A DNA stretch of 64,000 bases. It comes from Octopus vulgaris (Eukaryota). This document shows positions 5,927 to 61,800 of this stretch, one piece after another. The position numbers were made by a program, and so were the translations under genes. The DNA is taken from contig OX597822.1 in assembly GCA_951406725.2 (NCBI GenBank), positions 109,244,001-109,308,000 of the forward strand, read 5' to 3'. The notes under the pieces were generated by a model. It did not search any database and had not been told where the DNA came from. It was given only the letters and a program-made list of their open reading frames with translations. The first letter of the stretch is position 1. Each line of letters begins with the position of its first letter.

Positions 5927-7670
<1,744 letters not shown>

Positions 7671-8936: not shown

Positions 8937-8940
<4 letters not shown>

Positions 8941-11900
8941 CAACAATTGAGGGTAAAATTAATTAATTATTAATCAATTTCACCAAGTATTCAGTATGTA
9001 AAGGGACCATTATAGGCGAATTCAAAATATTACATTATATATAAGGGCTTAGTAAAATAAATTACTTTGCCACATACTGAACTCATTAGAAATAGCAGCT
9101 AAAGAAATTTCTTCAGCTATTTCTAATACTTAAAGAAGATCTCTCTCAGATAGTGTTTGCCTAAACCAACTCACAAAAGTATGGGGGAAAAAAATATTAA
9201 AAAATCAAGTGCAAAGGTTATTTGAGAACGTACGTTTCTAGATTAGTCAATTCGACATTTCTTTCTTCAGCTCAGAATTCCTTGAATCGGATTTGGGAAC
9301 ACTGAAAGTCGGGAGCATACCCTTTCGGCTTCTAATCACCTCTAGAATTCTGCTCGAACTAAAAGTGCTATCAAATTCGAATATGCAAGCGAAGAATTTC
9401 TGCTCTCCCCTTTCCACCAGCGTGGGTTAAAATTGACAAACACCATGTATTAACGGTGAAAACCGCAGCATTTAACAGAGAGAGATGAATTATAATTTCA
9501 ACAATTGAGGGTAAAATTAATTAATTATTAATCAATTTCACCAAGTATTCAGTATGTAAAGGGACCATTATAGGCGAATTCAAAATATTACATTATATAT
9601 AAGGGCTTAGTAAAATAAATTACTTTGCCACATACTGAACTCATTAGAAATAGCAGCTAAAGAAATTTCTTCAGCTATTTCTAATACTTAAAGAAGATCT
9701 CTCTCAGATAGTGTTTGCCTAAACCAACTCACAAAAGGTATGGGGGAAAAAACATTAAAAAAAAAATCAAGTGCAAAGGTTATTTGAGAACGTACGTTTC
9801 TAGATTAGTCAATTCGACATTTCTTCTTCAGCTCAGAATTCCTTGAATCGGATTTGGGAACACTGAAAGTCGGGAGCATACCCTTTCGGCTTCTTAATCA
9901 CCTCTAGAATTCTGCTCGAACTAAAAGTGCTATCAAATTCGAATATGCAAGCGAAGAATTTCTGCTCTCCCCTTTCCACCAGCGTGGGTTAAAATTGACA
10001 AACACCATGTATTAACGGTGAAAACCGCAGCATTTAGCAGAGAGAGATGAATTATAATTTCAACAATTGAGGGTAAAATTAATTAATTATTAATCAATTT
10101 CACCAAGTATTCAGTATGTAAAGGGACCATTATAGGCGAATTCAAAATATTACATTATATATAAGGGCTTAGTAAAATAAATTACTTTGCCACATACTGA
10201 ACTCATTAGAAATAGCAGCTAAAGAAATTTCTTCAGCTATTTCTAATACTTAAAGAAGATCTCTCTCAGATAGTGCTTGCCTAAACCAACTCACAAAGTA
10301 TGGGGGAAAAAACATTAAAAAATCAAGTGCAAAGGTTATTTGAGAACGTACGTTTCTAGATTAGTCAATTCGACATTTCTTTCTTCAGCTCAGAATTCCT
10401 TGAATCGGATTTGGGAACACTGAAAGTCGGGAGCATACCCTTTCGGCTTCTAATCACCTCTAGAATTCTGCTCGAACTAAAAGTGCTATCAAATTCGAAT
10501 ATGCAAGCGAAGAATTTCTGCTCTCCCCTTTCCACCAGCGTGGGTTAAAATTGACAAACACCATGTATTAACGGTGAAAACCGCAGCATTTAGCAGAGAG
10601 AGATGAATTATAATTTCAACAATTGAGGGTAAAATTAATTAATTATTAATCAATTTCACCAAGTATTCAGTATGTAAAGGGACCATTATAGGCGAATTCA
10701 AAATATTACATTATATATAAGGGCTTAGTAAAATAAATTACTTTGCCACATACTGAACTCATTAGAAATAGCAGCTAAAGAAATTTCTTCAGCTATTTCT
10801 AATACTTAAAGAAGATCTCTCTCAGATAGTGCTTGCCTAAACCAACTCACAAAAGTATGGGGGAAAAAAAATTAAAAAATCAAGTGCAAAGGTTATTTGA
10901 GAACGTACGTTTCTAGATTAGTCAATTCGACATTTCTTTCTTCAGCTCAGAATTCCTTGAATCGGATTTGGGAACACTGAAAGTCGGGAGCATACCCTTT
11001 CGGCTTCTAATCACCTCTAGAATTCTGCTCGAACTAAAAGTGCTATCAAATTCGAATATGCAAGCGAAGAATTTCTGCTCTCCCCTTTCCACCAGCGTGG
11101 GTTAAAATTGACAAACACCATGTATTAACGGTGAAAACCGCAGCATTTAGCACAGAGAGATGAATTATAATTTCAACAATTGAGGGTAAAATTAATTAAT
11201 TATTAATCAATTTCACCAAGTATTCAGTATGTAAAGGGACCATTATAGGCGAATTCAAAATATTACATTATATATAAGGGCTTAGTAAAATAAATTACTT
11301 TGCCACATACTGAACTCATTAGAAATAGCAGCTAAAGAAATTTCTTCAGCTATTTCTAATACTTAAAGAAGATCTCTCTCAGATAGTGTTTGCCTAAACC
11401 AACTCACAAAAGTATGGGGAAAAAACATTAAAAATCAAGTGCAAAGGTTATTTGAGAACGTACGTTTCTAGATTAGTCAATTCGACATTTCTTTCTTCAG
11501 CTCAGAATTCCTTGAATCGGATTTGGGAACACTGAAAGTCGGGAGCATACCCTTTCGGCTTCTTATCACCTCTAGAATTCTGCTCGAACTAAAAGTGCTA
11601 TCAAATTCGAATATGCAAGCGAAGAATTTCTGCTCTCCCCTTTCCACCAGCGTGGGTTAAAATTGACAAACACCATGTATTAACGGTGAAAACCGCAGCA
11701 TTTAACAGAGAGAGATGAATTATAATTTCAACAATTGAGGGTAAAATTAATTAATTATTAATCAATTTCACCAAGTATTCAGTATGTAAAGGGACCATTA
11801 TAGGCGAATTCAAAATATTACATTATATATAAGGGCTTAGTAAATTAAATTACTTTGCCACATACTGAACTCATTAGAAATAGCAGCTAAAGAAATTTCT

Positions 11901-11959
11901 TCAGCTATTTCTAATACTTAAAGAATATCTCTCTCAGATAGTGCTTGCCTAAACCAACT
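8937..11959 (-). mobile_element. Tandem array of ~558-bp hammerhead-bearing non-coding units (5.4 copies); retrozyme-like/PLE-derived
   Basis: Units start atttcaacaattgaggg at 8937, 9495, 10057, 10613, 11170 and 11725 (periods 558, 562, 556, 557, 555). Units are near-identical, have no ORF, and carry an HHR-like motif on the minus strand; the array begins directly after (TA)n. Confidence 0.9.
9223..9274 (-). ncRNA. Type-I hammerhead-like motif (further copies at 9785-9835, 10341-10392, 10898-10949, 11453-11504)
   Basis: tgag-CTGAAGA-a aga aat gtc gaatt gac taa tct a-GAAAC-gtac-GTT-ctca. Stem I is tgag/ctca, stem II is imperfect, loop 3 is palindromic GTAC. Confidence 0.7.
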
Positions 11960-12683
11960 TTAATGTTTTTTCCCCCATACTTTTGTGAGTTGGTTTAGGC
12001 AAGCACTATCTGAGAGAGATCTTCTTTAAGTATTAGAAATAGCTGAAGAAATTTCTTTAGCTGCTATTTCTAATGAGTTCAGTATGTGGCAAAGTAATTT
12101 ATTTTACTAAGCCCTTATATATAATGTAATATTTTGAATTCGCCTATAATGGTCCCTTTACATACTGAATACTTGGTGAAATTGATTAATAATTAATTAA
12201 TTTTACCCTCAATTGTTGAAATTATAATTCATCTCTCTCTGCTAAATGCTGCGGTTTTCACCGTTAATACATGGTGTTTGTCAATTTTAACCCACGCTGG
12301 TGGAAAGGGGAGAGCAGAAATTCTTCTCTTGCATATTCGAATTTGATAGCACTTTTAGTTCGAGCAGAATTCTAGAGGTGATTAGAAGCCGAAAGGGTAT
12401 GCTCCCGACTTTCAGTGTTCCCAAATCCGATTCAAGGAATTCTGAGCTGAAGAAAGAAATGTCGAATTGACTAATCTAGAAACGTACGTTCTCAAATAAC
12501 CTTTGCACTTGATTTTTTAATGTTTTTTCCCCCATACTTTTGTGAGTTGGTTTAGGCAAGCACTATCTGAGAGAGATCTTCTTTAAGTATTAGAAATAGC
12601 TGAAGAAATTTCTTTAGCTGCTATTTCTAATGAGTTCAGTATGTGGCAAAGTAATTTATTTTACTAAGCCCTTATATATAATG

Positions 12684-12689
<6 letters not shown>
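11960..12689 (+). mobile_element. Inverted arm (~1.3 units) of the 558-bp array
   Basis: Reverse complement of the unit sequence, ending in (TA)n. It forms a ~700-bp-arm palindrome with a 28-nt spacer (11960-11987). Confidence 0.93.
12443..12494 (+). ncRNA. Type-I hammerhead-like motif, plus-strand copy
   Basis: tgagCTGAAGAaagaaatgtcgaattgactaatctaGAAACgtacGTTctca read directly on the + strand. Confidence 0.7.
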
Positions 12690-14885: not shown

Positions 14886-15063
14886 AGGAGGGGCTGAGTG
14901 GTAAGTAGCTTGCTAACCAACCACATGGTTCCGGGTTCAGTCCCACTGCGTGGCATCTTGGGCAAGTGTTTCTTCTATATCCCCGGGTCGACCAATGCCT
15001 TGTGAGTGGATTTGGTAGACGGAAACTGAAAGAAGCCTGTCGTATATATGTATATATATATAT

Positions 15064-15693
15064 ACTAAGTAATTAAGGGTTTAGCAACGAATTGCCTCAC
15101 CAACACACCGAATTTAGAAATAGCAGTCAAAGAGATATAGCTATTCATTCTACTAAAAGGGGGATCTCAGTAAAAACACAGCACTTGAAAGGCAAACACA
15201 GACAGGTAAGAAAGAAAGAATGAAATGACGGCAAGCTACCTACGGACGTACGTTTCGAGATCAAGTTTTAGGATAGCATAAGAATTAGAAAATTCTACTT
15301 TACCCAAACTTCTTCTCTCATCGGCGCAGGATACCACAATTGTGAATAATTGTATATTAAATTTTGAGATACTAGAATGCATCATCTCAACTCAGTGTCA
15401 GAGCGAGCCAAAGCATGACCAGTACCACGAAATTCAAAGTTTGAATGAAAGTTTGCGTCACCAGCCCCCTTCCACCCGCGTGTAGCCAAGAGATCCCCCT
15501 TTTAGTAGAAGGAATAGCTATATCTCTTTGACTGCTATTTCTAAATTCGGTGTGTTGGTGAGGCAATTCGTTGCTAAACCCTTAATTACTTAGTATTACT
15601 TAAATTTTCCTCGAATGGGGCTTTTACATGCCGAAATCTACTTGGTGTAATTGATAATTATCCCTAATTAATTAAGTTCACCCTTTATTATTA

Positions 15694-15697
<4 letters not shown>
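15064..15697. mobile_element. Two-armed hammerhead element homologous to the 558-bp unit
   Basis: Arm 15064-15490 plus inverted arm 15491-15697; about 105 bp shared in inverted orientation. Shares ttaattaatta, caccaagta, aaggg-ttag, ttagaaatagcag, acgtacgtttc and cccc-ttccacc blocks with the array unit. Confidence 0.88.
15239..15330 (-). ncRNA. Type-I hammerhead ribozyme with extended stem II
   Basis: cctgcg-CCGATGA-[gaga..aagttt gggta..agaatt ttct aattct..tatcc..aaactt..tctc]-GAAAC-gtac-GTC-cgtagg. 6-bp stem I, U4C core variant, GUC cleavage triplet. Confidence 0.85.
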
Positions 15698-15756
<59 letters not shown>

Positions 15757-16279
15757 TTGTCCCCTAGCATTGCTTGACAACCGATGCTCGTGTGTTTATG
15801 TCCCCGCTACTTAGCGGTTCGGCAAAAGAGGCCGATAGAATAAGTACTGGGCTTACAAAAAAAAAAAAAGAATAAGTCCCGGGGTCGATTTGCTCGATTA
15901 AAGGCGGTGCTCCAGCATGGCCGCAGTCAAATGACTGAAACAAGTAAAAGAGTAATCTGCTGGGGTTTTTTTGTTGTTTTTTCTTCCACTAGAATTGCAT
16001 CTGATCTTCGCCCCAGTCCCATTCTCTCTTGCCACACGAATTATGTCTTGCTGTCTGCACTCGTCATTTCATACACGACATATTGTGACGTGCATGCAAT
16101 GACTGGCATTCATTCCCTGCACAATTTCCTCCTGTTGCCATCAAATCTGGAAGGGCTTGCGTACATTATCAGTAGGAACAGTCGGTCGAAGATAAAGTAA
16201 TCAAAATGTGTAGTTCTCCAACTTTCATTTGTGAATTTCTATACTTGTGTTTTGTATTTTGTAACTTCTTTAATCCTGC

Positions 16280-16711: not shown

Positions 16712-17160
16712 TATTGATATTTTGTGCTGAATCTTGGACAAAATGAACGAATGTTGCGGTGGTTGTGCATTCGTTAAATATTAATTTAAGATTATTTTTG
16801 TAATTTTTATTCAATTTAATCTAGTTTAAGCTCACGAGCTGTGGCCATGCTGGGGTAAACAGTTATAGATATTGATGTCATTTGAACTATACAGTATCAA
16901 GTCTAACACGTTGCACAATTTAAACTTTTACGTCATAAATTCTGACATGTTACTGCAGTTTCTATCAATGATAATAAATGATGGAAATAAAGTTGAGCTA
17001 TATTGCAGTGAACAGGAATGAGCACATAATACAATATTACATTAAATACAATAGTGTTAATATATTTTAATGATGTAACCCGGGAATCAATACGACCTGT
17101 TAACGATAATGTAGTCAAAAGCATTATAACCTTTATAGAAGTGTAGTAGTAAGGGGGATA

Positions 17161-17582
17161 TACCTATTTCTTTACTACCCAAAAGGGGATAAACACGAAG
17201 AGGACAAACAAGGACAGACAAACGGATTAAGTCGATTACATCGATCCCAGTGCATAAACTAGTACTTATTTAATCGATCTCGAAAGGATGAAAGGCAAAG
17301 TCGATCTCGGCGGAATTTGAACTCAGAACGTAACGGCAGACGAAATACCTATTTCTTTATTACCCACAAGGGGACAAACAGAGAGGGGACAAACAAGGAC
17401 AGACAAACGGTTCAAGTCGATTATATCGGCCCCAGTGCGTAACTGGTACTTATTTTATCCATCCCGAAAGGATGAAAGGCAAAGTCGACCTCGGTGGAAT
17501 TTGAACTCAGAACGCAGTGGCAGACGAAATGCCGTCAAGTATTTCGCCTGGAGCACTAGCGTTTCTGCTAGCTCGCCACCTT
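17161..17582 (-). mobile_element. Tandem SINE family B (partial copy plus full copy)
   Basis: Two consecutive copies at about 17161-17345 and 17346-17582. Confidence 0.9.
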
Positions 17583-45094: not shown

Positions 45095-46093
45095 CTAATT
45101 TTCCAGTCCGGAACTGTAAATGTCTGGCAATCTAGAGTCAATAAAATCTTCGAAGGCCTGTCTTCCACCCTCGTCGGAATTAAATCTTTTTCCTACCAAA
45201 ATGTTATCTAAATTCTGGATGAAATAGTAGTGAGTGGGAGCAAGATCAGGTGAGTGTGGTGGATGATGGAGAACTTCCAACTCCATCTCCTGTAGTTTTG
45301 TCAATGTCCTTTTGGCGATGTGTTGTCTGGTGCTGTTTTGCAATAAAATAGGAGTGGATCTGTTGACTAAAGTAGGCTGTTTTTCTTTAAGTTTCTGCAT
45401 CATGTGGTCCCGTTGTTTGCCGTATACTTCGCTGGCTCGTCTATGCCCAACCATTGTGCTGAAAGTTCCCAGTCATCACATGTCATAATTCGGTTCAAAA
45501 ATTATTCATGTTTGTGAGATAAATTAGCATAATGCAGGCTTCCAAACGTTGCTGTTTCTGATTTTCTTTGAGTTTATATGGAACCCACTTATCCAACTTT
45601 TTCACTTTACCGATCTGAACAAAGCTTGTCAATATTGTTTACTTACTTACACCAAATAACAACGATAATTCACGGGCACTTTGAGATGGATCTGACTCGA
45701 CGGGGGTTTTCATTCGTCATTATCCACCTTTGTTTCTGACCGATAGCGTTTCTCATCTGTGAGGTCAAATTTATGAGAACGAAATTTTGCAAATCAATTC
45801 TAAATCTAGCTGCTGTGTAATAACATTAGAATGAAATGCTCCATTAATATTCCAAGCTGTCTGTGATGCTGTGTTTCCAATAAAGAACCCATATTTCTGA
45901 ATTGTACGGCTTTCAGACTTGACCATCTCTAAAAAAATATCAAAAATTGATTTCAAAATACTTCATAAAGCGCAAAATGTGTCAGGTTTTTAACAAAAAG
46001 TATAGATTCTAAAAATATAATTATGACGCGAAATAAGAAGCTGTCAATTTTTACCCTATACCTTACTATAAATTTCATATATGACAACCTAAT
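45095..46093 (-). pseudogene. Internally deleted mariner transposon
   Basis: N-terminal KSE.RTIQKYGFFIGNTASQTAWNIN and C-terminal ILLQNSTRQH...LEVLHHPPHSPDLAPTHY (mariner HPPYSPDLAPxDY motif); TIR-like ttaggttgtc end. Confidence 0.93.
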
Positions 46094-61214: not shown

Positions 61215-61800
61215 CATTCTGCTGGGGTCTCTTTCCATTAACATATTCTCCATATAGCATCAGTTTCAGGATCCTGCTATCCTTCATTTTAATAAGGTGC
61301 CCATTTCAACGTAATTGGTGTTTGTGCACCATCACCTCAATGCTCAACATCCTAGCTTTCATCAAGTTCTGTGTGTCTGGAGTTTTTAAAGTCCAGCCAA
61401 CATTCAGAATGTGTCTCAGATATCTCTGATGCAAGTGCTCGAACACCTTTACATGACGTTTGTAAAGGCTACATGTCTTAAATGTGTAATAGAATGACGT
61501 CAGTACATATGCGCTATACACAGCAATTTGTGCTTGACTTGTGATGCCATGTTGGGACCCGACAGGAGACTCAAAAGACTGGAGGGAATCAGCTGCTCTC
61601 TCCAACCTGAAAGGTATTTCATCATCTAGGTAGCAAGAACAGCTGGGTGTGCTGCCCAGGTAGACAACTTTTCTACCACTTTTAGAATTGTTTCTTCAAC
61701 CAAGATAGCTGGTTCCCTATATGTATTCCTGGTGCAGGCTGTGCCATTACAGCAGTGTTGTCCAGGCTAATGCTTAGTCCAAATGCCTTGCAAGAAAAAG
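61215..61800 (-). pseudogene. Decayed RTE-clade LINE RT fragment
   Basis: [66 protein letters not shown]. Confidence 0.92.

Follow-up and report, generated by a model that had tools for sequence, protein, structure and literature searches.

In a 64,000-nucleotide stretch of Octopus vulgaris DNA (hereafter, the window), we traced an insertion of a non-coding 588-bp repeat, denoted family E. The repeat has two fixed end sites as well as a hammerhead motif, and it is probably a non-autonomous Penelope-like element (PLE), or non-LTR retrozyme, that would rely on a Penelope-type RT/GIY-YIG protein for its copying in trans. The class itself appears very likely; that the second end arises by paired priming is a more modest proposition that we moderately favor. 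Across the distinct two-arm insertions that have both ends at the two sites, one of each site is used in 82 of 82 cases and the same site twice in none.

The window belongs to a contig of a 2.8-Gb, 227-contig animal genome that is rich in SINEs and (TA)n. The E copy (15065-15697) is a head-to-head insertion of the 588-bp monomer with (TA)n on both sides. The first-pass annotation held that the element splits a SINE at its internal (TA)n, and this is indeed the case. The 5' half of the host SINE, which ends in the internal (TA)n and forms the target (14892..15064, + strand), is 93-95% identical to the first half of two intact window copies, and the (TA)n with the 3' half (15698..15955, + strand) shows 91% identity to their second half; the flanks 14892-15063 and 15710-15955 thus match consecutive halves of these copies (160/172 and 215/237 positions in one, 161/170 and 218/239 in the other). 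The ATA at 15062-15064 is common to the insertion and the target, and a target-site duplication is unreadable within the (TA)n flanks.

The long arm (15065..15491, + strand) begins at end site 2 and corresponds to positions 105-549 of the E monomer, of which 18 bp are missing between 15232 and 15233; the opposite, minus strand is taken as the RNA sense. The short arm (15490..15697, minus strand) begins at end site 1 and corresponds to inverted monomer positions 1-208, with the RNA sense on the + strand of the window. At the head-to-head junction (15490..15491), the arms overlap by 2 nt (GA), and an inverted repeat of 107 bp (15062-15168/15490-15596) is 99% complementary. A 104-nt tail (15594..15697, + strand), which is the stretch from end site 2 to end site 1, is present at one end only.

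The second insertion of this type in the window, an array of family A, starts after (TA)n with a site-1 arm of 5.4 head-to-tail 557-bp monomers (8939..11959, + strand, from monomer position 1), which contains hammerhead motifs at 9276, 10394, 10951, and 11506 on the minus strand. The site-2 arm (11959..12689, minus strand) consists of 1.3 inverted monomers starting at monomer position ~89-102 beside (TA)n and includes a hammerhead motif at 12441 (+ strand). The E copy had been described as a diverged sister of this array, and the alignments bear this out: 15489-15720 matches the array start at 70% identity (E 3e-22), the full E and A monomers have 357 of 511 aligned columns in common (score 376 vs 214+/-11 in 200 shuffles), and the region past monomer position 210 alone scores 186 vs 141+/-9 when shuffled. 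Both arm-start motifs quoted in that description are present and homologous in E and A. The insertion stands with small corrections, namely, a start at 15065 instead of 15064 and a unit consensus of 557 bp rather than 558. No ORF of at least 100 codons is found inside either window insertion, E or A, so that neither contains the RT and GIY-YIG ORF of an autonomous PLE, and the organization of both is tandem/inverted, not LTR-flanked.

Families E and A are both dispersed and young. An exact 25-mer of young E copies has 1,067 matches in the genome, and a degenerate motif of the common 3' domain has 8,454, with zero matches for the reversed control in each case. The arms of E/A-type insertions reach up to 11 laps, and several further diverged sister sequences among the fetched loci start at the same two positions whenever their ends are both preserved. 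Short-read contigs of three other large runs (X15, X16, X19) cover the E monomer, those of two of these also cover A, and in run X16, the contigs have (TA)n loose ends at both A end sites. Different sister families and PLEs are clustered in neighboring (TA)n tracts (L017 2628-3244; L104 5050-5336, 6160-6390; L279; L134), which suggests that such microsatellites act as insertion hotspots.

The outer ends of the insertions fall at two homologous monomer sites, at ~1 (site 1) and ~90-105 (site 2), 88-104 nt apart, as positioned by blastn with an uncertainty of several bases within TA-like sequence; base-exact mapping of site 1 is confounded by subfamily substitutions and was not used. The main counts come from a genome-order sample, that is, the first 60 E insertions from a pattern search, which was taken to remove the query bias of a score-ranked set and comprises 35 two-arm and 25 single-arm insertions. 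Among the 95 outer ends of this sample, 38 lie at positions 1-12, 52 at 93-116, and 5 elsewhere, a clearly non-uniform distribution with 90 ends at the two sites, in agreement with the first-pass annotation; 89 of the 95 adjoin (TA)n, consistent with the microsatellite or AT-rich targets of PLEs. Both ends are located at the sites in 30 of the 35 two-arm insertions, with one of each in all 30, and the 25 single-arm insertions start at site 1 in 6 cases and at site 2 in 19.

The score-ranked set, which is partly query-biased, includes 74 insertions after removal of one exact duplicate locus: 51 two-arm, 17 single-arm, and 6 that were set aside (5 ran off the locus and 1 was rearranged). Both ends are at the sites in 46 of the 51, one of each in 46/46. 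Among 20 further A-type loci, which were picked from earlier match tables, not blind, and the ends of which were read by eye, the corresponding values are 12 of 14 two-arm insertions and 12/12. Six insertions common to the score-ranked and genome-order sets are counted once in the 82. All 82 have the one-sided tail typical of PLEs, with a length of 88-104 nt, not 30-40, and the tandem and adjacent inverted, 5'-truncated copies with fixed 3' ends that characterize PLEs are present as well. In several PLE families (3' ends of L301, L106, L314, and L081) and at both E/A sites (window 15570-15697), a CC(C)T motif is located 7-17 nt inward from the end. Some sister families read AACCCTAA, which may resemble a telomerase template.

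The inner ends of the arms vary. The motif gatct had been proposed as a preferred endpoint at which the unit-start arm stops, and in the E copy, this arm indeed ends at position 208, with gatct at 203-207. The A arm of the array stops 29 nt past gatct, in the sixth lap, and gatct is found within 15 nt of the end in only 2/29 E and 0/23 A unit-start arms. We therefore reject gatct as a fixed inner end and regard its position in the E copy as a coincidence; the 6/19 ends near gatct in the first E set are a product of a query that contained this junction. The inner end is thus not supported as a shared endpoint. The companion proposal, preferred priming sites in the RNA, fits the two outer ends, which would be such sites and parallel the two internal in vitro RT start sites of a PLE described in PMC11167929.

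The predicted type I hammerhead motif of the E copy (15239..15330, minus strand; predicted cut after 15245) consists of helix I CCUGCG/CGUAGG, the core CCGAUGA (a U4C variant), stem II GAGA/UCUC with a 53-nt insert, GAAA, and stem III AC-GUAC-GU. The hammerhead descriptor scan gave 0 matches in 20 shuffled windows; Rfam scans yielded no hammerhead and chance hairpin matches only. The motif, which is expected of a retrozyme, is present in E, and of the 6 array units covering the site, 5 have it; unit 2 carries a deletion there. Across the sister families, sequence changes in helix I, stem II, and stem III preserve the pairing, loop 3 stays palindromic, and the stem II insert ranges from 17 to 62 nt; a short palindromic helix III is described for metazoan type I ribozymes (PMC4209133). 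The CCGAUGA core is found in 42/42 young E copies, and the A motif lacks the G10.1-C11.1 pair, which is called highly conserved in PMC4209133. Ribozyme activity is thus uncertain because the motif is non-canonical in the youngest families. The RNA-sense monomer folds with z of -5.6 (E) and -4.6 (A), and the opposite strand with -0.1 and -3.4, respectively (20 shuffles). Unrelated type I hammerhead motifs, most with stem II inserts of 49-52 nt, were detected in the flanking DNA of other loci (L228 at 1198 and 2102, L069 at 449, L037 at 2644, L238 at 3187, L255 at 2762), suggestive of more ribozyme-bearing families in the genome.

A conserved, structured 3' RNA domain of ~200 nt (15510..15697, + strand) was delineated from an alignment of 10 family representatives, pair counts, and a circular fold. 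In these representatives, 86% of the cells are paired, and two-sided changes occur in 9 of 34 pairs. None of 500 shuffles reached as high a percentage paired, a lenient control given that the structure was drawn from the same sequences that were counted. RNAalifold alone recovers two of the four helices of the domain and one pair of a third. Each end site is located ~13-15 nt 3' of a hairpin closing in GG/CC.

The genome also contains young elements with RT and GIY-YIG domains, a Cys-rich linker, and many intact 781-codon ORFs. This family appears to be Neptune-like, judging from its sequence and the description in PMC8557442. A second autonomous PLE family is 74% identical to it in the RT region. 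In two young PLE families (L095 268-4990; L301-L306), the RT + GIY-YIG ORFs of ~781-785 codons are intact, and the hammerhead-like motifs have a U3-A8 core. An overlapping upstream open frame of ~479 codons was observed in the 781-codon family, with a weak Pfam match below the cut-off. The autonomous PLEs end in (TA)n and carry tails of ~30-40 nt as well as hammerhead-like motifs; in all 5 of the inverted pairs seen, a tail is present at one end and absent from the other.

PLE candidates were sought by a genome GIY-YIG family search, with 150 of 6,136 matches scored, and an RT-region protein search. No homology was detected between the E/A monomers and the 3' ends of ~100 PLE loci (L061-L110, L171-L200, L301-L320), and a tblastn comparison of PLE proteins with 40 monomer-family loci found a monomer joined to a PLE ORF in 0/40. 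Monomers near PLE ORFs are separate insertions in shared (TA)n. In the consensus file of PMC8557442, three short 3'-domain motifs are absent, and two more gave no relevant match. Naiad and Hydra families that target (TA)n are recorded from Octopus in the same paper.

Metazoan non-LTR retrozymes, as described in PMC7229834 and in a preprint (bioRxiv 10.64898/2026.07.22.740005), resemble E and A in that their low-GC tandem monomers code for no protein and all carry a type I hammerhead motif, and thousands of monomers and multimers are dispersed in the genome. The monomers described here (588 and 557 bp) fall inside the 51-972 bp range given in these sources, which also propose that metazoan retrozymes depend on PLEs. 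Unlike the non-LTR retrozymes in these descriptions, the E/A insertions have all the end features of PLEs, namely, inverted arms, a one-sided tail, (TA)n, and two fixed ends. In the text available for the two sources, the word 'inverted' occurs 0 times in PMC7229834 and once, in a reference title, in the preprint, and 'tail' 0 times in the preprint. E and A further differ from the retrozymes in the 17-62 nt stem II insert and in that no pLTR homology was found.

The EN+ PLEs (Penelope/Poseidon, Neptune, Naiad, Hydra; PMC8557442, PMC3846280, PMC11167929) share with E and A partial tandems, an adjacent inverted 5'-truncated copy, a tail at one end, the (TA)n target, a hammerhead upstream of the 3' ends, and two internal start sites. 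In contrast to E and A, which have no ORF and a tail of 88-104 nt, the one-sided tail in PLEs with tandem and inverted copies and (TA)n targets is 30-40 bp long (PMC8557442, PMC3846280). The predicted ribozyme cut of E/A lies ~190 and ~290 nt upstream of the two ends, whereas in the autonomous family of this genome, the motif is ~70 nt from the untailed end. The Chlamys elements, such as MRC1 (PMC8557442), are likewise non-autonomous PLEs with multicopy head-to-tail insertions. However, as presented in that paper, their 3' ends are generally common with an autonomous family, and the clade is described as free of canonical hammerheads, whereas E and A have a hammerhead motif, and none of the ~100 PLE loci compared has a 3' end in common with them.

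Under the proposed mechanism, the arrays would give rise to multimeric RNA, possibly cut by the ribozyme and circularized. A PLE protein would bind the 3' domain and nick both strands of (TA)n, and the two nicks would prime cDNA synthesis at two internal RNA sites, one per strand, each ~13-15 nt 3' of the GG/CC-closed hairpin. The resulting cDNAs, from 40 to more than 6,000 nt, would be joined head-to-head at variable points; survival of only one cDNA would leave a single 5'-truncated arm, and a dimeric RT on one RNA would account for the one-of-each rule. There is a likeness to LINE-1 twin priming, in which two primers from one target yield an inverted structure with a variable junction. In LINE-1, the internal position of the second primer varies and the two cDNAs represent distinct portions of the RNA, whereas E and A have two fixed starts and arms of overlapping sequence. 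Direct precedent comes from the PAc protein, for which PMC11167929 reports in vitro extension of both strands, internal starts at two sites delimiting the tail, a predicted dimer, and no need for ribozyme cleavage. Strict pairing of strand and site is our reading of the genomic counts, as PMC11167929 saw no strand difference in the start site.

The two arms of one insertion derive from one template sequence because the arm-to-arm mismatch is far under the difference between insertions (32/6707, or 0.5%, vs 4.4% in E; 46/6653 vs 1.8% in A). This would also be expected, along with the one-of-each ends, under a rather unlikely alternative within the same class, in which RT priming produces just one of the ends. 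Here, the cDNA would fold back on a local palindrome and serve as its own template, and endonuclease cleavage of this intermediate at the other site would leave an inverted arm and a one-sided tail. Self-priming at palindromic junctions has been proposed in PMC3846280 and endonuclease resolution as the tail source in PMC8557442. Near-symmetric junctions, with both arms ending at most 30 nt from the same monomer position, fit fold-back and are found in 15/29 E insertions (shuffle mean 4.6) and in 2/23 A insertions. Against fold-back, many short arms extend to monomer positions past the end of the long arm, single-arm insertions begin at either site, and both tail ends were mapped to RT start sites in PMC11167929. 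Arm lengths are uncorrelated (Spearman -0.05 in E, 0.06 in A).

The laps of multi-lap two-arm arrays bear on the same choice, if weakly. Of 29 such arrays, 22 have no variant shared by only some laps and are therefore uninformative. In the 7 informative arrays, matches predicted by a same start of both arms are found at 12/19 sites vs 6/18 for fold-back; the same start fits better in 4 arrays, fold-back in 2, and there is one tie. In the four informative E arrays, which include one near-symmetric junction, the variants of the short arm agree with the outer laps of the long arm (11/13) rather than with the mirrored inner laps (3/12). The three informative A arrays do not favor a common start, and the array in the window fits neither scheme (same start 0/3, fold-back 1/3). 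The template evidence therefore leans toward paired priming over fold-back. A monomeric circle as the only template was rejected: it fits 22/29 arrays, and the other 7, with variants in some laps only, need a multimeric template, later conversion, or assembly error. Lap variants recur at period 3 and period 2 inside single arms (L219-L227, C1:50.43 Mb; L236), which suggests multimeric templates or higher-order source arrays.

It is far less plausible that E is a DNA-based repeat, such as a fold-back transposon, a MITE, a Helentron-type element, or a satellite spread by recombination, in which the hammerhead-like motif is incidental. The long inverted arms, the tandem units, the growth of which by unequal crossover is suggested in 10.64898/2026.07.22.740005, the negative Rfam scans, and the lack of an RT partner among the ~100 PLE loci compared would all suit such an element. 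However, outer ends that differ by a fixed tail together with variable inner ends show the polarity of 5'-truncated cDNA, the ribozyme helices covary, the fold is strand-specific in E, and the autonomous PLEs of the genome have the same end pattern. That the insertion is an assembly artefact or a palindromic read chimera at (TA)n can be practically dismissed, in accord with the first-pass annotation, which considered this a true insertion: near-perfect inverted arms beside low-complexity DNA, and the fact that no contig or read in the sequencing runs compared spans a whole insertion, are compatible with such an origin, but hundreds of dispersed copies on many chromosomes and in diverged families have the same two outer ends, the arms differ by 0.5-0.7%, the two halves of the SINE are correctly continued on either side of the insert, and both monomers are covered by short-read contigs from other runs.

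Paired priming can be extended, tentatively, to a retrozyme superfamily of about ten thousand monomers, in which the structured 3' domain might hold a PLE RT dimer on one multimeric RNA with its two active sites at two fixed positions, so that priming on the two target strands takes place at different sites. If this is so, the genome records an obligatory asymmetric double priming, the PLE tail and the inverted ends are explained in one step, and the spread of retrozymes is tied directly to PLE chemistry, with no need for pLTR sequence homology and perhaps none for an efficient ribozyme. Both the class and, in qualitative terms, the architecture have been described before; what differs is the tail, about three times the published length, and the counted one-of-each rule. 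In the open-access literature searched, we found no tail near 100 nt, no count of the pairing rule, and no inverted-arm retrozymes. The origin of the tandem/inverted insertions and the one-sided tail of PLEs is called open in PMC8557442, and PLE mobilization of retrozymes so far rests on shared ribozymes, co-occurrence, and phylogeny. The E and A families provide thousands of short, young, fully assembled insertions that follow a rule open to counting (one of each site, one template). Their conserved RNA domain of ~200 nt could be used directly in the in vitro assay published for PLEs, and the genome itself encodes intact candidate enzymes.

Several other features of the window are of note. 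A 460-bp inverted duplication (5927-6371 and 6788-7246, 95.7% identity) contains (TA)n in its spacer (6664-6780) and again at its right end (7245); it was considered as a third family and rejected as it is otherwise single-copy in the genome. Two open frames on the minus strand, 45095-45472 and 61306-61695, presumably correspond to a mariner transposase fragment and a C-terminal fragment of a LINE RT, respectively. At 17160-17530, two copies of a 184-bp SINE-like repeat are arranged in tandem.
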